Below, piece after piece: positions 9,133 to 32,600 of a DNA stretch of 42,333 bases (its first letter is position 1; each line of letters begins with the position of its first letter). Position numbers and translations under genes: made by a program. Source of the stretch: Sphaeroforma arctica JP610 (taxonomy: Eukaryota); contig NW_014039837.1 in the NCBI RefSeq assembly GCF_001186125.1, positions 5,172 to 47,504 of the forward strand, in the 5' to 3' direction. The notes under the pieces are model-generated. The model had not been told where the DNA came from, made no database searches, and worked only from the letters and a program-made list of their open reading frames with translations.

Positions 9133-10545
9133 ACACAAAATTACATAAAACACATTTAACGTGGAGTACCGAACTGCACGTTTTCAGTGAACAGTCGCAG
9201 TTTTCTATTATTCGGCAATTTACACTCTATAATTCACTCAATATTAGGCTTGCCCGATTGCGCCTACATAGCACTACGCGATTGCGCACCATACTAACAA
9301 CCTATTTATTTACGTCTCCCTTTTGTTGCATAGAGTTGATGTCCTCCCTTTGACAGTCAACTATTGATACTCTTACCTCGATATTTATTTTTTAAATTTC
9401 CTTAAGCCTGGAAGATTGGTGTATTTGACAAACCTTTATTTCACTATTTAGTAACAAATCATGAATGACTATACACCATAATCACGATCGGATTGTGCTT
9501 CATTCTCAAATAGTCTTATATGGTACCATAAATATGACCTGAGTAATCTCTGCCATTCCAAATCTTCCCTAAAATGGTTTGCCTGGTTTCCTTGGCTCCA
9601 TTTATTTTACTTTTTTGATGAACTCACTCACTGTCGTCGATTTAATGGGTTTATCACGTATAATTACGGCACCCAAATCATTATCTCTCAAAATTATTGT
9701 AAAGAGCGATATTGCCTTCTTTTTGTGTGCTGAGCTAGAGAAGCAGGGTTTGGGCCAAATACTGCCATTTCCACTATCTACTTTGAAGGAATCTTCAGTT
9801 TATTCTGATGCAAATAAAACAACACGTGTGTCTGATTTCCAAAGACAAACATCCAGTGAACCATTTCATTGCTGCAAACCGACATCAGTTGAATCGCTGA
9901 AATATTAAAATTGGTTACTAAGTCGCTCTATGGCAGTGACTTTGCAGAAAGCGCATCGAGAACATTTCATCACATGCGGGTAAGTGCAAGCAAGGTTGCT
10001 CAAGTTTCTGGATCCCACACCCAACGCGAAAATATCATGATACTACAGAAGAATACAAGCTCTATAAATGCCGATATCACAGAACATAGAACCAAGTTAC
10101 ATTGTAATAAAAAAGCACAGACACAACAAAGGGTGTACACAAAGACCACAAAGAACAAAATGATAAAGATTGGAAACGTAAACAAACTAATATAGACCAG
10201 GAATCAAAACAGATTGTATCTTTAAACACCCCAAATCTCGAGTCTTCAAGGTGTATAAATCAACCCACTTTTGGATTGTATTCTAAATGAACTTGTTCGC
10301 GAACCCCGTTTCGCTCTAAAATGAGTATCAGGTATGTTTTATCTCGCCCTCGCCTGTGGTTTTAACTCAATAGTTTCTCGTCGTTATGGCGCGTATTGTT
10401 AAAGACAGTCCGGGGAACAAAATATTATCTATAATATTATTGATTTCAATTTCTTTGTTTGTTTTGCTAGTGTTATTGATATTGGCAATTTGATGTATCA
10501 GCTTTATTTCATTAATTTCAATTTTTCGTGTTAGTATGATTATGA

Positions 10546-11720
10546 TGTGCACCCACCACAACAACCGTCATCGCAACAGATAATATAGATACAGTTAGTA
10601 TTACACAGATAGCGGGTGATATACAGACAGGTCACGTAGCTACTACAGCGTATCAGTTTTGGTTAATAGCCCAAACTTGCACCACAATGCCCAATTTTAC
10701 CCTCGGTCACACTACAAGTAAAGCTATGAAAATGCGCGAAAGCATCGAAACAGAGGTCGATAATCATTTGAAATGCTGGAATTGTCACGGTGCCAACAGT
10801 ACACGAATGGTATAGTTGACGAAGTCTCTGTAAATACAGAATCAAAACTAGACTATTCAACTAAAGCACCAACACTAAACTTTAATACCCATAGCTGCTC
10901 AAGGTCAAAACACAAGTAGCGCAGAGTGCACACTGTATGTATACATGAACAGACGTCAATCTTGTATCCCTACGACAATACAAAGTGCAACAGGCGATCT
11001 GTACTTTTTAGGTTTCTGAGGGGTTAGTGATTTTAATGTTAAAGCAAACCCCCCTCGTGAATCCTAAACCCCCTCTATACTGTAGATCAATGATAAGCGG
11101 CCATCAAGATGGGAACAACAACGCAAAACAAGGCATACATTGCTAAGTATCTATGATCTATCAACTACAAACATATAGTTGTACTGTAGGTGTTGTTCAA
11201 TTCGGTGCTCTATAAATATACTAAACTTGTGAATGGGACATGGTGTCCAGTATTTCCAGTATTTCCAGAAAGTCAAGTGTTCATGCTATTAAATTGTTCA
11301 TAATACGGTCACGCCAGCACCCACATGCAACACAGACTATGCATAAACATCATGCTATTAAAGAAAACCCAAGAACACATCAGTCATTTTATGAGAGGTT
11401 GTCACTAGTCATTCCGATATATCATGATACTAACGGTCTCCTTATGGACGCAGAAAATGAGTGCACTACATACGTTTAACAAAGAACCTGGGTCATTGCG
11501 CGCCAAAGGTGGTACGCATCTACAAATAAATAGTAAATACAGACCACTTGCGATGCCATACTGAGTTTATATCAGTGTATCTACGTGGCCACTAGAAATG
11601 AAAACATTCAAACAAACGAACAAACTAAATATTAACGATAAAAGATAGAGGAACGAACAAAGTAGCATACAAACCAACGGACGAATAACAAAGGAACAAC
11701 AAATGAACATATAGACGAAC
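10546..11720 (-). repeat. Detached copy of the ankyrin-gene intron cassette (no exon present)
   Basis: gtgcacccaccacaac..catcgcaacag matches 32776 and 34780; 10835-11650 is colinear with ~35065-35900 (e.g. tagctgctcaagg..acaagtagcgcagagtgcaca, tatcatgatac.aacggtctc, tttaacaaaga..ctgggtcattgcg). Confidence 0.85.
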
Positions 11721-12849: not shown

Positions 12850-13897
12850 ACTTTATCTCGCAATAGATTGGTGTATCAGAAATAACTACAAATTACTACA
12901 TCAATTTGCTTGCTATAGCGAGGGACATACATACATATAGCAATAGTTTGCACTCAAGCAAGAGAGTATTCAACGCTTAAGTCCTACGAGAATGCTTACA
13001 CAAAACTTTTAGACTGCACACCAATCTTTGTATTCGACGGCGATATACCCCCAGCTAAACGAGAGGAACATCAACTTTGATTCGATGCAGCGAAGGAAGC
13101 CTATCGTGGTTGAGAATTTTGGAAGCAACTGGAAGGTGTGAGACAGTGGAATTAAACCGACCTAACTGTCACGAGCATGAATACGAACTTGGGAACAACC
13201 TCGTATAGGTATCGTTTGTTGTTTGACTATTCGTTGTCAGAAGTGAGTAGCCCCATACAAGCGGACCCACAGCTGGCATGCATGTGACACAGAGAACTTC
13301 CTGGGGAATAGCTTCTGTTGACTCAGACATGCTTGTCTATGAAGGTGATATTAATATTTGTTTCTCTCTGAATATAGAAGCGGCTAAGACTCAGCTGTCT
13401 AAGCTTCGTGTTTGTATGTACACCCACAGCGACAAAACAAGGGTTTTCAAACTCCAAGGGTCTAAGTGAGGCAAAATTCATGGCACGCTCCCTACTAATA
13501 GGGTGTGGAGCTACACCCGCCGCCTTGAAGTCAAGAACGGCCCACTGTTTCGATATTATCGAAACTTTTTTTGTCTCGGTTGCATACTCAACTGTGTTTG
13601 AATGAAAACTGTAAACAATTGGAATTATGTACTTGCCGCCCTTAACGATGGTCTAGGTGTTATTCGCACGCCCGGTGTGAATCTTCGTTCACGGCTGCAA
13701 TACATGCATACCATTGGGGAATTCGACGTATCTGGTACTATATGTGTAGCAATTAGATGGTGATCGCGAGATAATTGAGGGTGATATAGATATAGCATCA
13801 AACCGTATATGTGGCGATACTGCTACACTACTGTGCTGGTGAGTATACTCAGACTGCAAAATGTGAACAAGCATTGAATTCAAGGGTGCGGTGTTTG
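12850..13897 (+). pseudogene. XPG/FEN1/Exo1-family (PIN-fold) 5' nuclease remnant, copy 1, part of an ISL2EU-like transposon
   Basis: PIFVFDGDIPPAKREEH at ~13021 (XPG-N motif), PIQADPQLA at ~13252 (cf. PYEADAQLA), ASVDSDMLVYEG (cf. TEDSD), LLIGC (cf. GCDY). It has stops and frameshifts and is colinear with 24820-25500. Confidence 0.75.
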
Positions 13898-14058
13898 ACC
13901 TGCTCGGGTCATATAGTGATTTACCGCTTAGGGCGGGAACCTTTTTTCTACTCTTGACATGGTGTCATATTGCTTGTGACATGACACTGTTCAGTTCGTA
14001 TGTATACCGAACTGTATATATTCTTGAGATGACACTGACTGATTTGATATGTCCAACA
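13898..14058 (-). repeat. Copia 3' LTR (outer ~45-50 bp missing), preceded by a PPT (TCAGGGGAG on minus, 14059-14067)
   Basis: Aligns to 21363-21516 with about 10 substitutions and 2 indels over ~150 bp (manual count). Begins TGTTGG on the minus strand. Confidence 0.9.
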
Positions 14059-14069
14059 CTCCCCTGAAA

Positions 14070-15600
14070 TCACTAGGTGGTGAATCGAGAGAATGCAATC
14101 GGATCGGGAATGGGTAGGACGTGCAGTGGATTTGGTTAAAATATCGGCTTGGTTGTCGGCAGGCGAGACGAATTTCATCGAGATGACGGCATTGTCCTGT
14201 AGTTCCTTTATGTAGTGCACCCGGATATCAATGTGTTTCAGGTGCTTCGTGGGGCCAGTGGAGGCGATAGCATGGATGGCCGACTTGTTGTCACATTGGA
14301 GGACTGTAGGGGAAGTTTGTGGGAAGCCTAATTCTGCAAGGGCATTTCATAGCCATTGGTTATGCTTAGCTGCCTCAGAAGCAGCAAAATAACCCGATTC
14401 GGCCGAACTAGTGGATAGTGTCTTCTGCCTGTGTGATTTCCATGCAACGGAAATCCGATTGATGCGGAGGACATATTCTGTGAGAGTACGACGAGTATCA
14501 GGGCAGCCGGCATAGTCGGCGTCAGAAATAGCGTCAGCGATGGGGGGTCCCTGTTGGTATTTATATATGAGGCCAAGATGTGATGTACCTTTCAGGTAAT
14601 AGAGAATACGTTGCGGAGCAAGCCAGTGTTGCTGGGAGGGGTTCTCCATGTAGCGGGCTAATGTATTGAGGGCATAGCTCATATCAATACGCGTGAGTAC
14701 AGAGAGATGCTGGAGCGTGCCGATCAATTCATGGTATGCACACATGTGGCGAGAACCGGTATTGTTAGTTAATATATCTTGTGTTACCGGGGATGGTGCA
14801 GGGTGACTCAGCTAGTTCGAAGGTATTTAATGCGTCACGGATGTAGCTGTCTTGCACTAAGCTAATGAAATCCGACACTGTGAGTACGCGGCCTAACAGC
14901 CCACTGGGTGTACCTAAGTCTTTACAATTGAACTCGGCTTGAAGAAGTGACTTAAGGTGATCGACATCGGATGGTCGAAGGCCACAAATAAGGAGATCAT
15001 CAACGTAGAGGAAGACAAAGCACTTTAGGTTGTCACTATCGACAACGAATAAGCAAGGGTCGCAAGCAGCTTGACGGAACCCCATGCCGAGCAGTTTGTA
15101 TTTGATGAGTGCATGCCATAAGCGGCCGGACTGTTTAAGTCCATACAGGCACTTTTTGAGCTCGAGCACACAGTCCGCAGGAACCCCCATGGCATCAGTA
15201 CCGGGAGGTGGTTTCATGTAGATAGGCTCATCAAGAACGGCGTAAAGGTATGCTGTGTCGACATCCATTTGAGCAACATGCCAACCTTGGGAAGCGGCGA
15301 CGGCAAGTAAAGTTCGCAATGTATCATGGCTGCATGTAGGGGCATGGGTTTCGTTAAAGTTGATACCCTTTGTTTGTGTAAAACCGCGAGCACAAAGGCG
15401 TGATTTGCACTTGTCGACGATACCATTGATGAGTTTGACTTTGAACACCTATTTACTAGATACCACAAAGGCATCATCGGGAACCTCGTCAGGCTGCAAG
15501 AGGTCGTATGTGCCGGCCTGTGTGAGGCTGTCAAGTTCCCTTTGAATGGAAACACGCCATAAGTCAGCATCCGGGCCCTTGAGCGCGGCACGGATAGTCG
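14070..15600 (-). pseudogene. Copia reverse transcriptase + RNase H (frameshifted)
   Basis: RT motifs CKSRLCARGFTQ, QMDVDTAYL, LKKCLYGLKQSGRLW, LYVDDLL. RH motifs SDADYAG, WKSHRQKTLSTSSAE, QCDNKSAI, KHIDIRVHYIKE, NQADILTK. Confidence 0.95.
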
Positions 15601-16705
15601 TCGGGGTAAGTGGATGTTCTTGGACTTTGAGACAGGCACTATAGATTCGATGAACAGTGTCGTTATAAGCGGCCTGTTTTGTGGCAATAGTAGTGGTGTG
15701 TGGTTCGCGTGGGGAGGGTGGACAGGTGAGAGTGATGGGTTGTACTATGCCATCAACATCGTCATCGTCACTGGGAAAGTGGAGTCGGATTGGTTGTTGT
15801 AGCGCGGAAAGTGCCTTGTGTGTGCTAGTGCGGGTTTGTCGGCATGGTTCTGGCGTTTCGTCCGTTTAACATTTACAAGGGATCGCAAGTATTTTTGGCG
15901 AAGGTTGTACTCTTTGATGGACAGGGCCTGAGGGCATGCTGATGGATTGGTCGGTGGCTGGAATGTAAGTATGCCATTGTTCTCCATATCACAGGCCCAC
16001 GATACATGTTTGGGCTGGGGAAAGAGGTGGTGGCGTGCTCCCCTGGAAGCGAGGCGGCGGATGGTGGAGAAGGTGGTGCTAAAGTGGCGGTGAACGTGGC
16101 AACATTAGTGGTGGGGATAGGGTCCTGATGCATTGGATCAACGGTAAGGTGAGACGGTGCGGGTGCGTGCGCTGATGACTCCCCTGAAATGGAGGAAGTG
16201 AGAGGATGATTACCACTATGTGTGTTTGATTTGTTGTACATACGCATGTTATTGAGTAGGGTGGGCTCCCTTAATGCACCTGTGTTACCACGCGGCTCAA
16301 GTAAGAGATCGCGGAGTGTACGGGATTCAGGATGTCGTTGGATATGTGTGTGGAAAGAGCAGGGTCTGAGTTGGAGGTGGCTTGTGTGGTGGAATATTCA
16401 AGTGGGGTAGGTAGGAGTGGACGTTGTAGATGGGACATCGAAGGTGTGGGTAGAAGGGGACTAGAGGAAGATGCAGCAGGTTTAGTGGTATCCAGAGTGG
16501 TAGTCTGTGTTTGAATGCCACGAGAAGTGGTAGTAGGTGGAGGTGTGGGTCCGGCGGTAGTGTTGCGGGTCGGGTTTAGGGCAAGGGTAAGTTTCCTAAT
16601 TGTCGGAATGTCGTGTGGTGGCGTTGAGAACTGGGGAACCGGAGTGTTGCCTATCATACTTCATGTGGGAAAGACATGGTAATTAAATTTAACATCACGG
16701 GAGTG

Positions 16706-17460
16706 TCAAATTTTACCAGTCTTGAGATTTATAATACGGCATTCATCATAGTATGTTGATTGACGGTCGTGTCCAAGGTAGACGCCTATGTTGGCGCGGT
16801 CGTCAAGTTTGTCTGTACGGGATTGGTTAATAAAGACCACCTGACAGACAAAAGGGTGGATGTGTTTGATGCGGTCAGTGGGTTTGAAGCCCCAGAAAAT
16901 CTCCCATGAGGATTTGTTGTCTTTGTTATGTTTGTTATGATGAACGGACATTTTAAGGGCGGCAAATTGTATGGCTTCACCCCACATGTTCGGCGGCATA
17001 TTGGCTTGTTTCATGTCGCTGAGCGTGATGTCATATATGGCGCCGTTAGCGCCTTCGACCAAGCTATGCAATGGTGGTGTGGCAGTAGGTACATATCGAA
17101 TTTGGACATGTTCCTGTGTGTTGATGTTATTGAACGTGTGGGAGACAAACTCGCCGCCCCTATCACATTTGAGTTCGCGTAATTTGGCGAGATAATCTTT
17201 ACCAATATAGGTATAGAATCGATCAAGCACTGTGATCGCAACGTCTTTGTGTTTGAGGTTGTAAACGAGTGTGTAGCCGCTGTTAGCATCAACGAATTTG
17301 ATGTCGCATGTATAGCCACTTGGAGTCGTTGGCAAACCGGTATGAAGATCAACATGAAAACCGGTACCTACAGGCGGACGTGTGTCGTCATCTTTGTTAA
17401 TGTGTCGCACTGGACGGCGTCGCATCTTGCCTTTGACACATGGTGTACAGAAGGTAAGAT
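16706..17460 (-). pseudogene. Copia integrase (CC half of zinc finger, DDE core, C-terminal region)
   Basis: FCTPCVKGK, FHVDLH, FVDANSGYT, KCDRGGEF, LVEGAN, MWGEAI, KLDDRANIGVYLGH. Confidence 0.93.
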
Positions 17461-17534
17461 TGGTAGGATGGGCAAGCGCGTCAGCTTCGGCAGTCAATAA
17501 GTCTATCGTAGGTGGTACAGCATGCTTGATGTTT

Positions 17535-17960
17535 CCAACACGAGCAATACATATGTAGCGCCATTTTGGGAGTCCAACGACGGTGGTGCCATGTTCTAGA
17601 AAAGTGTCCGCAGTAGTACGGATGACCTCGACATGTGAGTGTAATTGTCGCAATGTCTGGTTATAATTTTGGTGTTAGGCATAAGTGGAAAAACCATAGT
17701 GATTAGGCCATTCTCTTTGTCGAGTTTATCGAGTGTGTTACGCCATGTTGTTCGTGTGAATGGTATATTGCCATATAAACGTTTGTCTGGTTAGTGCCAT
17801 CATTACGCGAATGCGTCGTAAAGTGGTGCATCATCGTTGAGCCCGGAATACATCGACACTTGAGCATTGTTGGCATCGGCGAGCAAATCTATGTCTACTG
17901 GTCCGAAGACGGTTGTTACATGTTTAGTCAAGAGTTCCGGGTTGAGCATCCAATTAGTGT
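17535..17960 (-). pseudogene. DIRS/Dam-like DNA N6-adenine methyltransferase domain embedded in copia pol
   Basis: Manual translation: NWMLNPELL..VFGPVDIDLLADANNAQVSMYS..YDAFA**WH*PDKRLYGNIPF..LDKL..ITMVFPL..(frameshift)..TFL..VGLPKW. This matches the pattern W.L.P..F...GP.D.DLFA...N....Y.S...DAF...W....Y.NPPF...L.K...V.P of DIRS methyltransferase domains. Confidence 0.75.
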
Positions 17961-18027
17961 GAGATGATTTTGTTTGAATTGTAGGCATGATTTTGTTTTG
18001 GAGAATTGTATCAGTGGACTTATCACT

Positions 18028-18455
18028 ATGACCCAGTCGGTTGTGCCACTCGGTGGCTGTGTTTGTTACAAGAGTTGTTAATGAATATTGTCCATAGTGA
18101 ATAGGGATAGTGTGGAGTTACTTAGTATCCTTAAGGATGTGACATTCCGGTGGTGTATCAGCATGTGCTGCTGCCGGAAATGTACATCATATCCATGTTG
18201 TTGTAAAAGTTGGACTGAAAGTATATTCTGTGCGGCCGTAGGTACAATGAGTACAGGGCCGAGACCTGGAATCGTTCCTCGTTGTCGTAGAACTATCTGG
18301 CTCTTATTGGGAAACTCAACGATGAATTGGCCTGTCTCTAAATTGTGAACGCCATCGGTGGTCGTCCTGATGTGTACCATGGCGTCAGAGTCGATGAGGG
18401 AAGGGATGAGATGGTTATGTACGGGATTTTCAGGGATGTTTTGGAGTATATTCAA
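18028..18455 (-). pseudogene. Copia aspartic protease and HH half of the integrase zinc finger
   Basis: LIDSDAMVH (cf. DSGAxxH), VLIVP..NILSVQLLQQHGYDVHF; then EWHNRLGH at 18051-18028 after a frameshift. Confidence 0.85.
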
Positions 18456-19398
18456 TTTACAGTGGCATTTGAGTTGCTCACTGGTAGTGGAGTAATGGGC
18501 ATCTATATCGGTATAGGGTGTATAAGATATGCTATGAGTATTATGATCACCCTGACGTATGGCCCCGTACCTTCAGTTTTGCATGCAAGCTGCAGCGTTA
18601 TGTCCTGTTTTGCCGCATTTGGGGTTGGTACAGTGGAGTGTGCTTCTATCAATCGGACACTTGTTGCCCTTGTGATCTTTAGAACCACGCTTGCGGCATA
18701 TGGATTTGGACAGCCATGAATACTATGTCCAAGTTCGTCACCTATTGGACATTTGATATCCCGAGGCTTTCTTGTAGTGGTAGGTGCGGAGTGGATACCT
18801 TTTGATGTGATGAATGCATTGATACCAGATGGGCTGTTGTTGATCTGAAGCTGATAATCGCCTTCATACTTCAAGGTGGGTCTGTAGACCTCACTAATGT
18901 CAAGTTTGGTTATATCCATGGCAAAGATTGTAGACCGAAGTAGGTGATATTCATCACCGAGGCTGTATAATAGCACACAGATGAGATATTTGTCTGGGAT
19001 GTGTTCACCAACATCTAGGAGACTTTGTCTTAGTTCCTCTAGCTGTTACGTACTTTGTTCAGTGGAGCCAGTAGCCGTAAATGTGGTGAGGCGTACATTG
19101 ATTTAGGGTAATGGTTATGGTAAACAGTGGTAACCAATTCCTCTTTGATTGAGTCTATCATTATACGTCGGCATCGGGCATTGGCTAGCGTGTCGACACC
19201 ACAAAGCTGCTCACACACAGTCGGGATGAAGTCGATGAAGAACTCCGAAGTGCGCAAGTTCCATTTTAAGACCCACGATCCATTTACTAAGGCTTTCTCA
19301 GTTTGCAAGTTTAGTACGGTTGTAAATGTCTTTGTACTTGGGGCACTCAGAAAGGGGAACACCTGGGTCGGTGGGGGTAATACCATATTTTTCGGCAT
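18456..19398 (-). pseudogene. Copia gag remnant with degenerate zinc knuckle
   Basis: LLYSLGDEYHLLRSTI (UBN2-like gag segment) and KCPIGDELGHSIHGCP (decayed CX2CX4HX4C), lying directly upstream of the protease. Confidence 0.7.
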
Positions 19399-19482
19399 AG
19401 CATGATGAATCTATTTTTATAAGGATAATATTATTTATTTCAAAGCAGTTAAGTTACAATGTTTGTACATATGGTATGGCTC

Positions 19483-21116
19483 TCATAGCCGTTGTAGTGG
19501 TTCGGGGAAGATCGATGGGAAGAAGTGGTCAGTATATTCTCTGTTGAAGCTTGGACCAAGTGAGTCGACAATGGAGAATATGCGCTGGGTCAATTCAGGC
19601 CGGTGCTGACAAAAAACTGACACCATCGAGTGTGCCACGTATTCGCTTTCTGACCTACTAAATAGCGTACCCACCTCTGTGGTTCGGATCGGGTCTTTAT
19701 CGTGTAGTGCTGTGGAATGGGTTAGTGCAGAGTACGAAATGCCAAGTAGGACCAGGTTATCCGTCATAATTCGGTTGAGGAGCGAGGTTGGGGGTGGACC
19801 GATGCCGCACCAGACCATGGATGCACTCGGTATGTGCTGGTTTGCCTGTATTGGAAGTATCATGGGCGGAACCAACAGGCGCGATGAATTGGTTTGGACC
19901 AAAATTTGGAAGTAGTACTTCAACAGCGTGATTAGCCGGAGTATAGGAAACATCTGTTGATATGTCAGAGACGGGTGTGGGTACAGGGGTTGTTCTACAT
20001 GCTGGAGAAAAGATCCAAGGTGTTCGTGGAGGGTCCAGATACCATGGAAGTCGTGGCGCCCCTGTAGTTGCTGGAGGAGATCAGAGCCAATGAGAGGCAG
20101 TTTTGGGCCTACCAGGATGCATTGGATCAGTTGCTGGATGCAGGCAAAGTGGTTGGTGGTGAAGTTTTGGCCACCGGGGCAGACAGGGCAGAGACAGCCG
20201 TCAGTGCGGTAGTCGAGAAATGTGAACATGTCCGTATTTGTTACAATCATAGCACAGAACCGGATTGGTGTAGGCTCGAAGCAGCGGTTGAAGCTGTCGT
20301 GTCTGGCTTTGTCCCGATCTGAGGTTGGCTGTTTGCCCATGACCAATTGGTAGTAGTATTGACGCCGGGCCATTGCCGCGATCGCCTTGTTGGACCAGCG
20401 TTTCGTTGATTTTTTTTTCTAATGTCGTCACATCGTCGGCGGAGGGCTACATGATCTGGTGTACGCTCGTCCGTGGTTTTGTATACAGTCTTCAAGTGGG
20501 CATATATACTCTATGGGAAGCGCAGTGAGGGGTTGTCGTGGGCCCAGGCGGGTTGCGTCAGAGGCGTGAGTGGGTTTGTGCTGGCCATTGAGTCGAGTTG
20601 CAGTCCCACCGGAGCTTTTAAGTTTGGCGATTCTGTCCAAGGCCTATTGTAATTCAATACGAGTAGTATCAAGCTCGAGTTGAAGAGCAGAGTAATTATC
20701 GGTAGACTTCTCGGATTGCTCGAGAGATGTGATTGGGCTTCTGTTAGACGATCTGTTAGTTGTTTGTGATCGATTTGTAGTGATTCGTGTTTGGCTAGAA
20801 GCACTTTGTGTTCGTCACCTAACTGCACATTATGACGTTTGCAGTTATCGATACCAGTTTGAATATCTTTGCGATTTTTGTTTGCAAGATATAGATCACT
20901 ACGCGCCATTGTACGATGTGGTATTGTTTTTGCAGTAGAGCCAAATATTTCATCATAGGAGATGCTAAGATCCTTGATGACGTTGTTGATGGCATCCATG
21001 TGACCATTGGCGGATTCGAGAGAGGTGTATACTGGTAGTTCTGGCCAGAATTCTCTCGCAAAAGCTTGTGCCTCGCTGAGAAAAGTGATAGCTTTGGGCC
21101 AGTTGATCACCTCCAT
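19483..21116 (-). pseudogene. Extra ORF of unknown function between the PBS and gag (broken into 201-, 70- and 296-aa segments)
   Basis: Long same-strand ORF pieces inside the LTRs, with an N-terminal coiled-coil-like stretch (LLAKHESLQIDHKQLTDRLTEAQ) and a CLCPVC motif. A short AT-rich spacer separates it from gag. Confidence 0.6.
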
Positions 21117-21298
21117 TTTGTTACGTGTGAGATTGATTGATTAAGTATGTTAAGTATTATGAACTGTAATCAATCTGTGGAGTTGTTGAGTGTCTGTGTA
21201 GTAGGGTTGTTTTAGTCGATCCGACTTGCTGTCTATGTAGTGTTTAGTATAAGTTACTATTTAGCTGTATGTTTGACTTACTATCGTGTGAAATTCGA

Positions 21299-21309
21299 GG
21301 CCCACAACC
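21299..21309 (-). promoter_or_regulatory. Primer-binding site, copia/Ty5 half-tRNAiMet type (GGTTGTGGGCC)
   Basis: Immediately follows the 5' LTR's terminal ..AACA on the minus strand and resembles GGTTATGGGCC of Drosophila copia. Confidence 0.75.
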
Positions 21310-21516
21310 TGTTAGATGAATGTAAACAGATAAGAAGTAAATTCATTTGATTACCCAACTGAGGTCATACAGTGTTTTACCGCTTAGGGCAGGAATCTTT
21401 TTTTCTACTCTTGACATGGTGTCATATTGCTTGTGACATAACACCGTTCAGTTCATATGTATACCGAGCTGTATATATTCTTGAGATTGACACTGACTGA
21501 TTTGTTATATCCAACA
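21310..21516 (-). repeat. Copia 5' LTR, 207 bp, TG..CA
   Basis: Plus strand tgttag...ccaaca; homologous to 13898-14058. Confidence 0.92.
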
Positions 21517-22645
21517 AGAGGTAACAGCTATGAGAGTGGTTAGCATCGATAGGCAAATCACGGCTGACAGATATTGCTAAACTCTACTGTGCTGGCGAGT
21601 ATACTCCGACTGCAAAATGTGAACAAACATAATTCAAGGGTGCGGTGTTTGCAAACCACTACAGATATTCAAACACACATATGTACCTATTACTCGGAAC
21701 AGGTGATATTAGATCCCGATAGTTACAAAATCAAATATGCTAAAATTCTGGTAAGCCAACATACAAAAAAAATATGACAAGTCCGCACTTCGCCACAGAT
21801 TGCAGTAGCGTTTCAGCACCATGAATCAAAATGTATTAGTATGCCTCTACTAGCTTGTGCACCGTAGATGGACGCTGTATATTTCACAGTGCTAATACTG
21901 TGATCTCAGAATGTCGGTCGGATGGAGAATAACGCAAAGATTGAAGTAGGAGAAGAATGCATTGGACATCCAGTCCTCGAAGGCTACTATTTTTAGCACA
22001 GCAAGCAGCGTATGGAAAACCCCATAAATACAGCTCTGATCTTGATCTTACATTAACGTCAAACAAATATATCCTATGCATAAGTGAGCTAAGTAAGTAG
22101 AATGAACGCCCGGGGAATCGTAGGTAATTGAGAAATCCCTGGCCACGTTCGTAGTTGAAAGGCCTCGTACTGCATCCAGATTACACGACCAATTGATTGC
22201 TGCTGTGTACGGTACAAAGAGTATCAGAGGTAACAGCTATGAGAGGGATTCGCATCGATAGACAAATCACGACTGACAATATCATAATATAATTTGAATT
22301 ATTATTGTAAGGCAAAATATTTTGGAATCTACGCCGTATACACTGGAGTTATAACGATGATATTACACAGTTCTATCACCTGAGAAAAAGTGATGCATAG
22401 GACCATAGACTACCGATTATTAAAGCTTCAATTTCAATAAACATGTTTTTGCAACAAATTGCAAATTTTTATATAGATATTCTTCATATAAACTTCAATG
22501 TTTTATACTTCTGTTTTTATAATAGGAGAGATGATATCTGCTAGATTAAAGCATACGTCAGCCACGATACAGAAAAACTGTAAATCTACAAGCTTTACTT
22601 TGTCCGCTGACATTTTTAAAGATCTTCGCACGTCGGTTTTTCCTT
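21517..22645. mobile_element. Continuation of ISL2EU-like copy 1: 3' part of the nuclease ORF (SWIM segment deleted) and C-terminus of the transposase (minus)
   Basis: Colinear with ~25425-26392. The minus-strand KMSADKVKLVDL matches KMSADEVKLVDL of 26257-26640. Confidence 0.8.
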
Positions 22646-23206
22646 TATGACTCTGATCTACGAATATTTTTACTCCGGTAACAAAACATCGGACGAAGGA
22701 ACAACGGAGGCCCATGTATCATATAGATGGCTATTGCTATTCACACCAATCGAAAGACATGAATAGCTAGAGGATGCATTATAAAGACGATCCCCCATTG
22801 GAGCGACATTCATAGCACATCTGGTTCCCCTTCTATGTACGTTTCCCTAACAGACACCTATCCGTAACCCCAAGCTATTTATAGCACGGCGCGCCCTTTT
22901 CTGGTTGCCCCTTGCTCATTGGTTCTCAGCCAAGTTAAATTTATTCAAACCCTGAAAACCCCAAAATTCGAACTGTGATGTTTTTTTCTGACCTTATTTA
23001 TTCTATTATTTCTGATCCTATTTATTTACAAACTACGTTCACGAATACTGCTATACTATTGCATCGCATCTGTTAGTCTGTTTGAGCATCATGAGCGGCC
23101 CTGGGTCGGGGGTACGTCCCCCACCGATGTAGCAGCGTGTAATATAACTATTGCCTCACAGGAAACAGGCGTTGACTGGCAGTTCTGGCCGTGCGAGTTA
23201 CCTGAT

Positions 23207-23600: not shown

Positions 23601-23845
23601 ATATTATTCCGCCTAACTTACTTACTTTGTGCTTATCTAAAAGATCGACAGCTCCTTGCGCATGCCCAGACCTTTTAGATATCAGAATCTTCCCGATTCC
23701 TTTCTTGTACTGGTGGTATTACTACGTTTGTTTGTATTATATCTTCAGCTATAGTCGTTGGATCTTCAGTCTTGTCTAAGGTAACAGTAACAACAGGGAC
23801 TAACGCTCGCTCTATGACACCGTCACTGTGTGTTTGTTTATGCCT

Positions 23846-24151
23846 TTAACTGCTGATCGGATTTGATTCACGTCCCGGTGTGCCATCTACCGGCCTGTTT
23901 TCCACCACAAAGGAACTAGCCTTCCGTTTAGAGAGTTTCAGCTTAGGGAGTCTGCCTATTCTAAGGATTTTTCCTCCCTTATAGTCTCTCATATCCTTCT
24001 TCTGATCAAAGTGTGTACTGCATACTTTGAGGACCTTGTAATCCTCCATGCGACCATCTAACGTCTCCCGCCATGCCTCTCGCCATCTGTGTAGTGGGAT
24101 CTCATCCCACATCAGACCGTATTCTGAAACACAACAACGACCGCCTGACAT
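23846..24151 (-). pseudogene. THAP zinc-finger domain remnant
   Basis: MSGGRCCVSEY..IP..REAW..KVCSTHF..LRIGRLPKL fits the THAP C2CH pattern, with the second Cys mutated. Confidence 0.7.
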
Positions 24152-24253
24152 CTTCCTCAACTCAAAGCTGTCTAAGGTATATCTATAAGTGTGCACGTTT
24201 GCATTGTTGGAGTATGTATGTTTATGTGTAAAATTAAGTAAAACTAGGTACAA

Positions 24254-24342
24254 TAGTCAAGTTGTAGTCAGATCGTAGTCAAATCGTAGTCAAGTCGTAG
24301 TCAAACGTAGTCAACCCGTGGTCAACCCGTAGTCAACTCGTA
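24254..24342. repeat. ~8 tandem 10-11 bp units (gtagtcaaNNc), subterminal in the nested element
   Basis: Directly visible. Confidence 0.85.
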
Positions 24343-24565
24343 TTTTTTTCTGTTATTTTTGAAAAAATGTCAAATTGTAGGTAGGTTTGCTTCACGTGCC
24401 CTTGACGCCGTTGTAGTCGTAGTAACGGGTACTATAGTGTAGCGTCATAGTCGTATTGATGCCCACTATCGATTGGTGCAATAATATATAGTGTCCAATT
24501 AATAGCCGGATATAGCCATATATAAGCATCGTTTGATACGTGACTATTTCTCACAGATCAGGGTC

Positions 24566-24810
24566 TTCAGATGAATACGGGAAAATGCAATCTTCATCGT
24601 CTCGATTTCTGTTTCATTGTAAATTGGCCATCTTTTGATAGCATCGATGTTAGTTTATACTGTACTATATCCGATACCAGCTCATCAATATGGAACCCTT
24701 ATCCCTCACGCAGCTACATCCTGCCCGTAGTTATCCCGTTAGGCTTTTTGGCACAATACTGATATTTTTTTAACACTGATTTTGCCTGGATATAAAGACG
24801 AAGGAAGGTA
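24566..24810 (-). pseudogene. Transposase DDE fragment of ISL2EU-like copy 1
   Basis: Colinear with 26393-26635 (tgtaaattggccatcttttga.agcatc; ggctttttggcacaat). Confidence 0.8.
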
Positions 24811-24819
24811 AAAAATTAC

Positions 24820-26062
24820 TGTCACGAGCATGTATACAAATTTGGGAACAAACTCTTATAGGCATCGGTTGGTGCTTGGCTATACGTTGCCAGAAGTGAG
24901 TATCCCTATACGAAGCGATCCACAGGTGGAATACTTGAGCAGAGAACTACCTGGAGAAGCAGTTACAGCTTCTGTTGACTCAGACATGCCGGTCTATGAG
25001 GGTAAAGATATTTGTTTCTTTCTGAATGTAGGGGCTGCTAAGACGCGGCCATTTATGTTTCGTGTTTGTATGTGCACACACGGTGTTTTAAACTCCGAGG
25101 GTCTAAGTGAGGCGGAGCTCATAACACGCTCCTTATTGATAGGGTGTGAGTACACCTGCTACCTTTAAGCGTCAAGAACAGCCCACTGTTTCAAATACAA
25201 TTGAAACATATACATTGGTCTCGAGTACATACTTAACTGTGCATAAATGGAAACGCAAACAAATTCGATACCGTACTCGCCGCCCTCAAGAATGGTCTTA
25301 GAAACCATTTAAACGCCCAGTGTGAATCTTCGTTCAGGACTGCAATACGTGTATACAGGAATGCTTTAATGTACCACATGTGTAGCACTAAATGGTGATC
25401 GAATATCAGGAGACCGTGTATGTCATAATATTGCTACTGTCCTGATGATTATATACCGTTTGCAAAATGTGAACAAGCATAAGAAAGGCGGACGGTGTTT
25501 ACGAATTATCACAGATATACAAGCACACATCCGTACCTGTTGCTCAGAACAAGTAGTATCAGCTTCCGGTCGTAAGGGTAACCCTATTTTGACACGGATT
25601 GCAATAGCGTTGCGGTACCACAAACTAAAATGAATTAGCATTCCTCTCCTAGCTTGTGTACCGTCGCTGAACGCTGTCTATATCACAAAGCGCTAATATC
25701 GCGAACTCAGAATGCCGCTCGGATGGAGGCTTACGCAAAGACTGAAGCAAGAGGATGATCAAGTGCTCGAAGGGTACTGTGCATGTTCACTAGATGCTGG
25801 TAGGCGATGTGTGCATGTAGCTGCCCTTGTATGGGCAATACAGCAAGCAACGTGGGGAAAGTTATCGTCAGATGAAGATGATCTGTCTACAAGCAAGCCA
25901 AGTAAGTGGAATGTATCCTCAGGCAATCATAATGACGATATTGAGAAATTTCTGACCACGATCATAGTTAAGAAGCCTCGTACTGCATTCAGCAAACAAG
26001 ACCAATTGATTGCTGCTGTATACGGTACAAGAGTATCAGATATAATGGCCACGAGACCGTGA
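24820..26062 (+). pseudogene. XPG-I-type nuclease + SWIM zinc-finger ORF, copy 2 (5' truncated)
   Basis: DPQVEYLSRE..TASVDSDMPVYEG..LLIGCEY, then GYCACSLDAGRRCVHVAALVWAI (SWIM CxCxnCxH) and STSKPSKWNV. Confidence 0.75.
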
Positions 26063-26256
26063 GAGGCTAGCACCGACAGACAAATTAGACAATGGCAGAC
26101 TAAACAAATATTTAAACTAAATTATGATCTTTCCATGGTACTGAAAAATAGCTTTGGGAACGCCGCAAATAGTGGGGTTTGTACGGTAATATTGCAGAGT
26201 CCTATCACCTAAAAAAAAGGAAGTGATGCATAGGGCGGGCCATAGGTTACCTGATT

Positions 26257-27773
26257 TTAAAACTTCAATTTCAATAAACATATGATATCTGTTAGATAAA
26301 AGCATATATCAGCTACGATACAGAAGTGTAAATCTACAAGCTTTACTTCGTCTGCTGACATTTTAAAGATCTTAGCTCTTCGGTTTACCCTTTCAATATA
26401 AATACAAGAAGATGCAATCTTCTTCGTCTCGGTATTCTGTTCTATTGTAAAATGGCCGTCTTTTGAAAGCATCTTCAGTAAATAATATTTGACTCTATCC
26501 TGTAACAGCGCGTCAATGTGGAAGTCTTTATCCCTCATGCAACGACACCGTGGCAATAATTTATCCAGTAAGGCTTTTTGGCACAATTTTGATATTCTTT
26601 TATCACTGATTTTGTCTGCATATAAAGAGGAGGCAAACACGCAATGTCCCGTTTGCGGTGTTTATATTCACTCCAGGTCGCTGCCTGAAGATTGAGATTC
26701 GAAGATGTTTCTCAGAAAGACTCTGTACAGTTTCATACGAATGCTTTTGTTGCATATCCACCACCCTTGGAACACGGAAGTCTCAAGCCATTTACAAGAC
26801 TTGGATTCATTAGTGCCAATGGAGTTCGCGCCGGAGTTTGAAAAACGATAACATCACCATATTTATATCGTTAAGGATATTGGACGTCGTTTGGGTACAA
26901 TTCAACTCGTATAATTGGTCACAATCCCCTGCTCCAGATTGCGCCGCACTCTACAGAACCACATAACTACTGTGTCCTCAAACCCTAAGCCGACCTGGAA
27001 TGAAATTCTCCCCGTGCGCCTTTAATTGTTTCATAAACACATTGAATTTCGTATTGCTCTGGATTACAGTCCAATAGCACCGATATGTTTATAATTCAAT
27101 TTAGCTACAGTGGTAGAATCAACTTCAACTTTCTGCATTTGAAACTTCAGTCGAAGTTCCTCGAGTTCCTTGCTAGCCACCCTTACTTTGTCTTCTGCAT
27201 ACTTTACTTGAAGTGACATCGTTTCATTGAACTCTTTATCATTGTCCACCAATTTAGAGTGCAAACCATCGATTTCTATACGCCTCTTTACAACTTTAGT
27301 CACAGCGTTCCCAACAGCCTTTGATTGCGCTTTTAATTGATTTGCGGGTTCGACGAGTGTTTGTATACTAGTCCGTAGGCCAGTTCTCGATCTTTAGATC
27401 GATTACTTGTCTAAACCAAGGGTGCATCCTTTTCCTATATCTCATCTGCGATAAGCAGTAGTTGAGCCTCGCGCTCTTTTTCCTTCTCAATGTTATCCTC
27501 TACGGTGTGTGTGACTGTACGTTGGTATTCATCACGCTTCAGGGGAACAGCATCTGGTGTCAACGTGTATAGCTGATTTTCCTTACGTAGAAACTGTATA
27601 TCAATTTGCTTTTGACACCATCTGTGACATTTGTATATTTCTATGTACACTGACCACCAGGCTTCATACGGCCTAACTTTGTCAACCACGTAACAAATCA
27701 AGATACTGGTTGAATTGGTTGGATAGCCATGCTTGATTGCATCAGAACAATACTCTGCCGCACACCTACCCAT
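26257..27773 (-). pseudogene. ISL2EU/PHIS (DDE_Tnp_4-type) transposase: THAP-like, coiled coil, HTH, DDE
   Basis: MGRCAAEYC..LTPDAVP (THAP-like); LGFEDTVVMWFCRVRRNL (HTH region); NCTESF*ETSSNLNLQAATWSEYKH; FASSLYADKISDK; MRDKDF; ETKKIASSCIYIERVNRRAKIFKM. These match the IDCTE/YK/SD/ADKGF/RIHVER motifs of this family. Confidence 0.85.
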
Positions 27774-28039: not shown

Positions 28040-29294
28040 TGCCATAATTACAGGGCGGTACCGCAAGGAGGGCAGGACAATCGGCCACGTACGACAGACC
28101 TAGGCAGGCAGCACCGCGAACAACAATCGGTACAACGCACAGCATCTACGCCAGCGCAAGGACAGTCACCACAAGCACACGTATCAGAACAAGCAGCTTG
28201 CTCCCACCTCTGCAGCACCACAAGTCAGCGTAGTCACGCACGATGAATCTGAGCAGGAGCCATCTTCGGCAACAGAGGTACATATTAAATCCATTCTCGC
28301 GGATGACTATAAGCAACCCGACGAAACAACCTCGACCCCACCACAATCAGCTTGGGCACTTATACCAATGTAACTCAGAGACATGAGGGTGTCCGATGAT
28401 AATGTGGCACTCATGTTTACACATCCAATCAATGCAATATCGGCAATTCTTGACCCTCTGCTGACATCAGACAACCGCGTCTACATACAATTGCAGGCGA
28501 ATGGTCGGACATTCAGAGCATGGGCGCGAACCTGAGTTGCATCGCACGAACATCCGCAGACCTCCTAGGACGTCCGATCACTACACCCCAAATTTCTTAT
28601 TATGCTTAGCGGACAAAGATGTGCGAACTCCTCGACTGGGGACGACGGGAGTGGTTCCGATTGGATTCGGTACTGAAATCATCAACGGATCTTTGGAATT
28701 TATGAACTCGCCTGACAGCATCGACATTATTCTAGAATTAGATATGATGCCAGGCCTAGGTTTTTACAAAGGGGGTACACAGTCCCCTCTCGCTTTATTG
28801 ACCTAACCGATCTCGATGACCTTCTCATATCAATGGCCCGTTGCCAAGCCCCCAACACCACCAAACCAAACGGTGTACGGGCACAACTAGATACAGAACT
28901 CTGAAACAAACGCTGCCATTGCAGACAATACATGCTGTCGTCTAAAGGGGAGCGAGGTCGCTATACTAGTGACACGCGAACAGATCATGAGCATGAGGAG
29001 AACCACACGCAACTTTGTATCCGATAGGTGGTTACCGTATGTCGACATCCAAGTACAGAAATGGTTGAACGACCTGGTTGTCATGATGCGCACGACAACG
29101 ACGACAGTGAATCTACTACCGATAGCAGTTCCTACTTTCGACAATGAAGGCAAAGTAAAGAAGTTACGAGCACGTTTCGACAGGAGAGCCGTCAACGCAC
29201 TCTTACCACGCGACCAGTTCTTGGTATCCAAGGACAATGAGACCATCTCCTTAAGAGTAGGAAGTATTACACACCACTAGATATATCGGCAGCA
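28040..29294 (+). pseudogene. Ty3/gypsy remnant: protease region and N-terminal half of RT
   Basis: DIILELDMMPGLG (cf. DxILGxD), VQKWLND, KKLRARFDRRAVNALLPRDQF (cf. KxRxCxDxRxxN..DxF), LDISAA (RT motif A). Confidence 0.7.
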
Positions 29295-29625
29295 GACCGT
29301 ATGCTACCTATACACATCCTTCGACGATACCTTCTTCCCTAAAATCATGACTTCGGCAGTCGCAAAGTGACACTTTGTTGTGCTCATCTTGAAGTTAAGG
29401 TACGTTAGGTGTCTGATAACCTCCTTCACTGTAGCGATGTGCTCTTCACGATTGTCACCGGCGATCGCTATGTCCTCAATGTAGTGATGTACTGGCAATC
29501 CGACTAACCTCGCACTCAGGGTGCGTTGAAGTGGCTATGTTAATACATGGGAGTGCAAACGGTGAGGATGTGAACGAGGACTAATATATGTCAGGCGTCA
29601 AGCTGAAGAGGTATCTGGCGTTGGG
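29295..29625 (-). pseudogene. Inverted gypsy RT core fragment
   Basis: PFAL..LQRTL..HYIEDIAIAGDNREEH..LNFKMSTTKCHF..VMILGKKVS (YxDD decayed to YIED). Confidence 0.85.
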
Positions 29626-29634
29626 TTACTAAAC

Positions 29635-32600
29635 CCAATACACAAAATTGACGCTGTGGGTAGAATGAGCTAGCAATCGAGTATTCTCGCACGAAACGTC
29701 ATAAAAGTACATACCTTTCAGGCTTCCTGAAACAGCAGCCGACCGTGACTGTAATATCAGTTTCAACATTCGTGAGTGCAGAATCAGTCCATGCATACTT
29801 ACATGGAGCATGAGTGTTTCGTTGTCAACTTCTATACTTCGACAGCATAAAAACATACACACGACTCTTCTCACACACTAAGTAGTATGTTCAAAGCTTC
29901 GTGATACTGCCGGCAAGCTGGACACACTCGATAATTGGCACAGGTTTTAAAATATATACACAGGTTTTTTCAGCGGTTTAGGAATTCAGACTATCTGCTG
30001 CATTGTAAGCAAATGCTTAAAATTGAATATTAGTGAATCTCATATAGTCGTATATTCCAGAAGGTCGTGTACACTATTAAATTGCGAAGACGTTCGCTTG
30101 TATACCGCGTTTGTTCACAATGTGAGATTCGTGTACAAAAGTATAGTTGCACACTTTGACGATTCATCATACTATCGTACTGCACTGACCATATGGCTAC
30201 ATATCAATTCCAAAAATCTTGATGCGCAATAGAAAAGCATGCTCGGTCTGTTGCAAAGGAACACTCAACAAGCGACAAATGTCAACGCGTGTTTCAAATT
30301 AGCACTACACAATGCACTCAATTAACACACCGCAAACAATACCACACACGGTCATTCAGCTGAAAATTTGTAAAATACAGACCTTCTTCATATGACAATG
30401 AAGGAATATCACTAGGCACGCAGCATAGGCGTATCAATCGAGAACCATGCATGTGATAAACAAACAAACAAACGACAAAAGCACAGACAAACAAAACAAT
30501 TGATGGACCAACGAAAATCACCCCACCCCCCTCTTAAACACATAAACGAATAAACAACACACAAAAAACAATCATCAATAAACAAATGAACAACAAGTGA
30601 ATAAATGAATGGAATAAAAAGCGAACAAATAAACAAACAAACAAACACACTGAACAACTGAACGAACACATAAGATATGGGGAAAACGTCACAGACACAC
30701 GCATGTCTGAAGCATACCAAAAATCAGAGACTCGCCATCGGACACTGATTAACAACTTACATCCACGTCTTCATACTCACATCATGTACCGACGTAATCA
30801 CACCCACGAGATAACACCCGCTGCAAACCACTCTGTGAATGACACGTTACACCATGTACACGGCGTACGTGGCACTCCAAGACGGCTTACATACGGAGTC
30901 TTTGGCGTCCATGTTGACCCTCCACTGCAGAAGAAGCTGCACCACTTCTTTGTGACCACTCATTTCGGCATGAAGCAGTGGTGTTATCTCACCCTGACGG
31001 AGTGAAAAAAGAAACAGTCGTGCACTGTGAAAACGATATAGTATAGAAATAGATAGTATTACATATATAACATTGCTTCGGTAAAAAAACAAACTAGAAA
31101 GTATATATTTTTAATCGTACTATCTTCGCACACAATACACAAAACTGATGCTGTGGGTATAATTAGCTAGCAATTGAGTATTTTTACACGAAACGTCATA
31201 TAAGTGCATGAGGACTCTTCTCACCGCCTATTTAGTATCATCTAACTTCTGTGTTACTGCCGACATGCTGGACAGACACGATAATTGGCACAGGTTCAAA
31301 AATATATACACAGGTTGTGCATCAGTGAAGAAGATGAGACAATCTCGCTGCCCTTCCATACGACCACCGCAAAGAGTCATTTAGACTATCTGCTGCATAC
31401 TACAGGCAAATGCTTGAAGACTCAGTGTTAGGGAGCCTCATATAGTCGTAATCAAGTAGGCCGTGTACATGCAATCAAATTGCGGAGACGCACACCTGGC
31501 ATACCGTGTTTGTTCACAATGCGTGATTCGAGTCCGAAAGTACATTTGCACCCCTTGACGATTCATCATACTATTGTACAATACTGAGCATATGACCATA
31601 TAAGAATTCTACGAATGTTGATTCCCAATATAAAATTATGCTCGATCTGTTGCGAAGAAACACGTTGATCAACAACCGTATCAATCGAAAACCATGCATG
31701 TGGTAGGCAAAGAATTACATAACAAACGCACAGACAAACAAAAAATTGGAGTAACCACGAACAACTAACAAACAACAACCAACAAACAATAAACTTAAGA
31801 ACAAATAGGCAAACAAATGAATGAACAAACAAGCGAACAAACCAACAAACGAACGCACCAAACACAGCACGAGCAAGCTGACAAACAGACAACATACAAA
31901 AGCATTGACACACACGGTCAAATGATGCAGCCCGTATACTATGTAGATACCTACTACATATTCATCGATAACGCGAATGTATCTACGCTTTCAGTTATAT
32001 TGACCATCATTTTATGGCTCACTATGTAAGTGTACTTCGTTTAATGGGTAGACACATCGACAGAGATCTAAACTAGTCACACAACGAGTTCGTCACTCAG
32101 GCGTGACATATCAAATCATAGTTAACGCCTCTCACACAACAATACCAGCATTGTTCACCAGTTTGACAGATTGTATCATTTTGAAAATGACACGAATTTT
32201 CTCCCATCCGTATGTACCAAGATATGCTCAGCATATATACGGATATATCTGTATCAATATCTGTAATAGAAAACCGAGGCATTCTATCACTTGCTGCTAC
32301 ACTACTACCGAGCATTATGACTTTACCATGGCGTAGCTTCAAGTACAGGAACAATATGCCTTGCGACAGTGTACATAGAACAAATCGATAAATCACACAT
32401 ATGATATAGGGGAAATGTTACAGACCCATGCATATCTGAAGCATTCTGAAAATCAAAGATTCGCCATCGGACATCGAGTAACAACTTGCATCAACGATTA
32501 CATGCTCACACCATGTACCCACCTGCTTACACACGCTCAAGATATCACTCGCTGCAAACGACTCTGTAAATGACACATTGAGCCATGCACATGGCGCGTG

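Follow-up and report, generated by a model that had tools for sequence, protein, structure and literature searches.

Dam-type adenine methyltransferase domains have long been known in the pol of DIRS elements (PMC3783388, PMC5890265). In a preprint of May 2026, five lineages of DAM-LTR retrotransposons were described, which are RVT_1-classed and Ty3/Gypsy-like; one of the five is ichthyosporean and includes Sphaeroforma arctica (Fernandez-Moreno et al., bioRxiv 10.64898/2026.05.21.726589). According to the accessible text of that preprint, Asn-Pro-Pro is the family norm of eukaryotic DAMs, much of the prokaryotic target-recognition region is absent from their DAM domains, and eukaryotic DAMs expressed in E. 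coli gave no 6mA; the DAM-LTRs of S. arctica have more 6mA and more transcripts. For copia elements, the accessible part of a plant survey reports no domain gain (PMC9289625), and copia elements of Symbiodinium are without cytosine methyltransferases in the accessible text of PMC5890265. The locus considered here lies in a window of 42,333 nucleotides, the whole stretch of S. arctica DNA that was analysed. Its integrase zinc finger is parted by a domain of the Dam family.

A decayed copia element with a parted integrase finger

The window element (13907-21516, minus strand) is a decayed Ty1/copia LTR retrotransposon (Table 1). Its reverse transcriptase is of the copia type, with an E value of 1e-45 for the Pfam profile RVT_2 versus 0.19 for RVT_1, and its parts follow the copia order gag-PR-IN-RT-RNase H, in which integrase stands ahead of the reverse transcriptase. 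The integrase core is recognised by rve (E 5e-4) and SH3_retrovirus (E 7e-6), and its top match in the PDB is the integrase 7z0h_W (E 1.6e-8), which we take to be that of Ty1; the D, D and E of the DDE integrase and all four residues of the HHCC finger are present. The RT end and RNase H region matches control copia loci with E values down to 2e-24 (tblastn). The LTR pair is 92% alike over 154 nt (self-BLAST), and the PBS-like sequence at 21309-21296 resembles the half-tRNA-iMet PBS of Drosophila copia. The open reading frame at 20723-21116 has no meaningful Pfam match and is assigned to gag from its position. In its ApT and GATC content the element does not stand out. Stops and shifts break it throughout, a 1.3-kb repeat is nested in gag and the 3′ LTR is truncated; because the end of this LTR is missing, no target-site duplication can be read.

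The nested insertion (19414-20722, minus strand) belongs to the gag of the window copy only and not to the copia-Dam family: in two of four runs, sister contigs join ~20723-20744 to 19392-19413, skipping 1309-1351 nt. In all four runs it is roughly a thousandfold deeper than unique contigs, although depth does not translate into a number of copies. Within it lie a 310-aa open frame with C-x2-C-x9-H-x2-C and an A/T-rich 3′ end; comparison with Pfam, NCBIfam, PHROGs and the PDB gave nothing credible, and the insertion may be the 3′ portion of a non-LTR element. The copia element itself sits in a decayed repeat (13165-13897 and 21517-22646) that matches 23800-26700; this repeat recurs at 24800-26400, a presumably Harbinger-like region with matches to THAP, SWIM and DDE_Tnp_4. 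Near the truncated 3′ LTR, ~82 bp (13816-13897) duplicate 21570-21651. Elsewhere in the window there are decayed gypsy-like RT fragments (28700-29500, found by tblastn with the gypsy protein P0007; no Dam match nearby), diverged 1.3-3 kb repeats that are AAC/AAAC-rich and 69-88% alike (29600-38400 and 10500-11700), and a 407-aa proline-rich open frame on the plus strand (997-2220) that has no Pfam match and is probably a host exon.

Table 1. Features of the window element (positions in the window; P0002-P0004 are S. arctica proteins)
Feature	Position	Strand	Basis
5′ LTR, 207 bp, TG...CA	21310..21516	-	self-BLAST against 13907-14058; 3′ end set by the PBS-like sequence
PBS-like sequence directly after the 5′ LTR	21296..21309	-	
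Putative gag, first part, ATG at 21116	20723..21116	-	open reading frame and sister-contig joints
Nested repeated insertion inside gag	19414..20722	-	sister-contig joints and depth
Rest of gag, broken by stops	18503..19413	-	Retrotran_gag_2 PF14223, E 0.021
Aspartic-protease / Pol beta-barrel region, LIDSDA in the window copy	18180..18401	-	Pol_BBD PF22936, E 0.0055; 47% identical to P0004
Integrase HH half, WHNRLGH	18028..18048	-	gag_pre-integrs PF13976, E 0.018
Remainder of the first finger half plus linker to Dam, 23 aa	17959..18027	-	length match to P0003/P0004
Dam-like N6-adenine methyltransferase domain, complete from W-x-L start to RVGN end	17531..17958	-	
SAM-binding-type motif DLLA	17878..17889	-	
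Catalytic-type motif NIPF	17758..17769	-	
Return linker, Dam to CC, 27 aa	17450..17530	-	55% identical to P0002 over 22 aa
Integrase CC half, CTPC then VKGK	17438..17449	-	
Integrase core and SH3-like domain; D 17350, D 17164, E 17056	16709..17437	-	
Copia-type reverse transcriptase, YVDD at 15007	14768..15448	-	
RT end and RNase H, broken, SDADYAG at 14526	14104..14808	-	
Polypurine tract directly before the 3′ LTR	14059..14067	-	
3′ LTR, without the final ~50 bp present in the 5′ LTR	13907..14058	-	

The two halves of the finger were found on the minus strand where the initial annotation had placed them, WHNRLGH at 18048-18028 and CTPC at 17449-17438. The frame of WHNRLGH runs through NWMLNP (17955-17938) and FGPVDIDLLAD (17907-17875) and continues with DAFA (17817-17806), LYGNIPF (17778-17758) and MVFP (17697-17686), while DTFLEH (17608-17591), GLPKW (17575-17561) and CTPC are read in the frame of the integrase core. 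The single frameshift that had been proposed inside the insert does occur, near 17666-17675. Three stops had also been reported and are present (17805-17800 and 17793-17791); the reading of the TGA as a former Arg did not hold, as the sister copies have Ser. From the second His to the first Cys there are 578 nt or ~193 codons, in agreement with the ~580 nt first estimated, compared with 24-28 aa in 17 control copia loci, which were hand-picked from 38 metagenome pattern matches and include many near-copies. Relative to control copia, ~165 extra residues thus part HH from CC. The W, H, R, G and H of WHNRLGH and the C, C and K of the CTPC region are invariant when set against eight control copia rows.

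A Dam-like domain between the finger halves

Judged by sequence comparison, the gap between HH and CC holds a whole retroelement-type Dam domain (PF05869). A profile built from 21 non-copia Dam domains matches it in the HH frame at 55.8 bits (E 1.5e-18) and has no second match in the window; when 200 base-shuffled stretches of 7.5 kb were scored with the same profile, the highest value was 6.2 bits. Since the 21 rows were found with the insert as the query, this match is favoured. The Pfam check that the initial annotation had asked for gives a match to Dam at E 0.003, below the curated Pfam cut-off, and the copia Dam domains reach 17-19 bits on that profile, likewise under the cut-off. A phmmer search of 1.84 billion representative proteins with the insert gave 19 matches. 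Sixteen fit Pfam Dam at E<=0.1 and are mostly RT-RNase H-Dam proteins of the DIRS type; the remaining three (P0006, P0008 and P0014), which are repetitive and have no Dam, were set aside. The alignment with the relatives spans the whole domain, from the W-x-L start to the RVGN end.

The insert is predicted to fold as a Rossmann-type adenine methyltransferase. The best of five models of the open homologue P0002 has a pLDDT of 70.6 and is the one that passed the acceptance level of 55 (the other four, 45-54). It superimposes on PCIF1 (Z 11.0, rmsd 3.1, 137 aligned), T4 Dam (Z 10.0, rmsd 2.5, 110 aligned) and E. coli Dam (Z 9.7, rmsd 2.7, 113 aligned); its Foldseek list is led by FtsJ, ErmC′, PCIF1 and KsgA/Dim1, and the Atlas clusters nearest to P0002 are PF05869 (0.92). 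A sequence search of the PDB with P0002 gave one match, at chance level. The Dam profile match and the Rossmann-type fold of the P0002 model together bear out the initial identification of the insert as a Dam-like methyltransferase.

The catalytic motif is less regular. The Asn of motif IV is kept in all four copia proteins and Asn-Pro-Pro is absent from all four, which read NIPF (window copy and P0002), NIL (P0003) and NQP (P0004, whose gene model ends at this point); three contigs in run X11 have Leu in place of Pro. The SAM-type motif is DLF[AS] in three of the four, the sisters having DLFA or DLFS, and DLLA in the window copy, where we take it to be the SAM-binding motif I of amino-methyltransferases. 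That the Asn is kept although Asn-Pro-Pro is absent weakens the case for a canonical enzyme, but not the homology. The initial annotation was right about the deviation to NIPF; it is not, however, private decay of the window copy, for NIPF is also found in P0002 and in P0007. The first Pro of the motif acts mainly via its backbone carbonyl. Active Erm enzymes have the pocket motif NIPY, with NPPY also written in the same source (PMC9386465), and this NIPY, together with the NIPF of the open gypsy protein P0007, means that Ile does not rule activity out.

An active methyltransferase acting on the RNA of the element (m6A or cap-adjacent m6Am) rather than on DNA would be in keeping with PCIF1 as the top fold match, with ErmC′, KsgA/Dim1 and FtsJ at the head of the Foldseek list, with the NIPY of the Erm RNA methylases (PMC9386465) and with the weak matches of several DIRS Dam rows to Pfam PCIF1_WW. 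We nevertheless consider an RNA target improbable: T4 and E. coli Dam stand within ~1 Z unit of PCIF1, the sequence profiles point to phage-type Dam, and a common fold shows no substrate.

A different question is whether the domain is an enzyme at all. Phe replaces the catalytic Asn in nine of the 21 non-copia Dam rows (P0011, P0015, P0017, P0018, P0024, P0026 and P0028-P0030), so the domain is often kept without it. The nine rows group together in trees (support 93/86 and 96/93) and represent a DIRS-like branch keeping a domain that is likely inactive. In the copia elements, too, Dam may have been retained without catalysis, as a part of the integrase that binds nucleic acid or chromatin, holding cDNA or RNA, for example, or steering insertion, e.g. 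toward 6mA-marked chromatin. Such a role would fit the variation of the catalytic motif among copies (NIPF, NIL, NQP), the rows without Asn, the negative heterologous assay in E. coli (10.64898/2026.05.21.726589) and the fact that targeting domains such as chromodomains sit on integrases. Set against these points are the Asn of all four copia proteins and the DLF[AS] of three, and the odd motif variants stem from decayed copies or doubtful gene-model ends; we view a binding module as a possible but somewhat unlikely explanation.

Sister copies, constraint and origin

The Dam domain recurs in three S. arctica proteins (P0002, P0003 and P0004), with 44-66% identity to the window insert; all three are automatic gene models, partly from broken copies. 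In P0003 and P0004 the Dam start is immediately preceded by an HH motif of their own (WHDRLGH and HHARFGH, respectively), with spacing as in the window copy and a linker equal to its 23 aa within one residue. P0004 has the protease upstream of HH-Dam, and P0003 has the integrase core downstream. P0002 aligns to both window frames as one open protein (56% and 66% identical); it is open across the frameshift and runs on into the return linker, and the stretch corresponding to 17450-17530 forms a low-confidence helix in its predicted model. A sister contig has one extra base at the frameshift in both of two runs, and contigs of the same runs have sense codons at the stop positions, at all three in X11 and at one in X12. 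The four copia Dam domains form one clade (support 99/98) and have in common an extra residue in the first helix. In base composition and GC3 the insert is like the rest of pol, and no word >5 nt is common to its two borders in the window copy.

A family-level fusion of Dam into the copia integrase is, on this evidence, almost certain. The initial annotation had proposed that a copia family captured the domain, and had named beforehand what would speak against it, namely the lack of a Rossmann fold or sisters free of the insert; neither was found. As diverged sisters share the Dam domain, the family likely carried a methylase to the DNA where it inserted. All copies seen are dead or partial and come from one species; among them there is no single intact HH-Dam-CC-core protein, and the CC after the insert is read in the window copy only.

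Far less credible is the account that a DIRS fragment happened to nest in a single dead copy, or that the assembly is chimeric here. The window copy does hold another nested insertion, in gag, and Dam domains are typical of DIRS (PMC3783388). The insertion point is, however, common to P0003 and P0004, P0002 is continuous and the four domains are one clade; no other DIRS part adjoins the insert, and its composition resembles that of pol. As for a chimera, a 2493-nt contig spans 15560-18052 with zero mismatches in two of four runs, one of which may be the source of this DNA. Taken together, we hold either event to be extremely unlikely; a one-off nested DIRS fragment is refuted by the sister copies with the insert at the same site. 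Separately, contigs of runs X1 and X11 have 18384 joined backward to 17739, skip 17921-17979 and reach several times the unique depth; a sister's protease-HH-Dam N-half piece has likely been repeated in tandem at another place in the genome.

The sister copies also bear on the state of the finger. With ~165 extra residues between its halves and an HH-side linker only 27-40% identical between copies, the finger could have been destroyed, so that HH and CC no longer share a zinc and Dam is a separately processed or loosely attached pol product. This is quite improbable given that both His and R-x-G are kept in all three copies spanning them, that C, C and K are kept in the window copy, and that in Ty1 the HHCC domain has a role in the multimerization of integrase (PMC8487063).

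In comparisons of the window copy with P0004, identity is 47% in the protease, 44% in the N-terminal half of Dam and 24-27% in the linkers; with P0003, it is 68% in the integrase core, 56% in the Dam N-half and 40% in the linker. In conservation the Dam domain is roughly on a par with protease and integrase and has therefore likely been selected; we regard past selection on it as highly probable. Column by column, two of seven pairwise tests of constraint fall under 0.05, and the excess of invariant residues at outgroup-conserved columns is borderline (9/24 versus 5/33, p 0.053). Set against its closest copies (27 contig rows), the window copy shows changes that appear neutral, at 6 synonymous and 19 non-synonymous codons (positions 10/7/10), and the window subfamily thus shows no recent selection.

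The donor tree kept 21 rows and left out the short P0003, P0004 and P0013, as well as P0031, a neighbour of P0027. By path length, the row nearest to the copia Dam domains is the gypsy protein P0007, and the grouping has a support of 59/78 with two long copia rows; two placements within DIRS are not rejected (p-AU 0.32 and 0.20). The donor need not have been DIRS directly; in the tree, a gypsy origin is neither shown nor rejected. Among the matches of the protein searches, which are weak on range, the HH-Dam layout is found in S. arctica proteins only, and none of the matches was recognised as one of the ichthyosporean DAM-LTRs of the preprint. Word-based protein searches, covering the longer proteins only, returned none of 321 candidates for P0001, three of 6333 for A2 and eight of 5937 for A4, the eight listing RVT_1 and never RVT_2. 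None of 79 pattern matches of P0002 to metagenome contigs was confirmed, and a degenerate HH-to-DLF[AS] pattern, restricted to this spacing, gave 38 metagenome loci, none with Dam (best E 2.8), and no viral loci.

Proposed mechanism and relation to known elements

How could an integrase accommodate and use such a domain? An ancestor would have taken Dam once, from a DIRS or a gypsy DAM retroelement, with the variable loop immediately ahead of CxxC as the point of entry. The finger halves would still close around zinc with the Dam domain looped out; the insert is flanked by 23 residues before and 27 after, and all four zinc ligands remain. Because release of Dam by the protease would cut the finger, the domain would remain attached to the integrase after maturation, both within the particle and at the ends of the cDNA. 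The tethered Dam would methylate adenines in cDNA, in the RNA-DNA hybrid or at the target site, and host AMT1 would then maintain 6mA and keep the new insertion transcribed; maintenance of the mark by AMT1 is the model put forward for the gypsy DAM-LTRs (10.64898/2026.05.21.726589). We favour this whole catalytic chain, an integrase-tethered adenine methylase marking new copies with 6mA, over the other readings and give it an even chance of being correct. Its most specific form, a first and independent capture of Dam by Ty1/copia in which, inside the intasome, an active methylase looped from an intact finger acts on the cDNA ends or the target DNA, seems to us unlikely. If it were true, the integrase would be a write-as-you-integrate enzyme, and each new insertion would start in 6mA-marked, active chromatin.

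Three groups of described elements invite comparison. DIRS tyrosine-recombinase elements have the same Dam family from start to end, and most of the non-copia matches are RT-RNase H-Dam proteins. In the accessible descriptions of DIRS, Dam comes after RNase H, without protease or DDE integrase (PMC3783388, PMC5890265), whereas the window Dam lies in a DDE integrase; with rve, SH3 and Pol_BBD present, the window element is not a DIRS element. SymbioDIRS-Dnmt3, SymbioLINE-Dnmt and KnitGypsy-Dnmt3 likewise have a domain in pol that methylates DNA and for which marking of the cDNA has been proposed, but theirs are unrelated C5 enzymes (PMC5890265). Among gypsy elements, the metagenome protein P0007 is of the chromovirus type (RVT_1, RNase H, Dam, rve and chromo) and shares NIPF and TFL-x-HGT with the copia Dam; its Dam domain, in contrast, lies between RNase H and an intact HHCC and not within the finger. 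P0007 and P0022 represent this open polyprotein of the gypsy type, in which an NIPF-bearing Dam separates RNase H from integrase and a chromodomain is also present. In another metagenome protein, P0010, the Dam domain is followed by FDTGS, which we take to be an aspartic-protease-like motif; P0010 may represent a further DAM-LTR layout, one in which Dam precedes the protease.

The DAM-LTRs are closest in kind, being LTR retrotransposons with PF05869 Dam in pol, with S. arctica in both cases; as far as the preprint's accessible text describes them, they differ in being RVT_1 and Ty3/Gypsy-like, whereas the window element has RVT_2, the order PR-IN-RT-RH, Dam inside the HHCC finger and NIPF for NPPF (10.64898/2026.05.21.726589). 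The words copia, ty1, zinc and HHCC have 0 occurrences in the main text of that preprint, and the 17-19 bits of the copia Dam on Pfam Dam would likely fall below its screen at E 1e-5 (10.64898/2026.05.21.726589). No description of a copia element with Dam was found in the literature searched, which took in few subscription papers and, of the preprint, the main text. The initial suggestion that the architecture was undescribed thus has to be narrowed: Dam in an LTR element is described (May 2026, Ty3/Gypsy, 10.64898/2026.05.21.726589), and it is the copia host and the position within the finger that stand as new relative to the accessible text. Screens based on Pfam and RVT_1, this suggests, miss families like copia-Dam, and an integrase finger seems to tolerate an insert of ~165 residues. 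Since a Dam inside the finger could presumably not be freed from the integrase, its job would be tied to the particle or to integration, a constraint that the DIRS and gypsy layouts do not set on when and where Dam acts. Dam capture is thereby extended from DIRS and gypsy to copia, likely in the same 6mA-using host in which the ichthyosporean gypsy DAM-LTRs arose, and offers a separate case against which to judge the proposal that 6mA in the host promotes captures of this kind. Copia-Dam would work like the DAM-LTRs, but it stands outside their described lineages.
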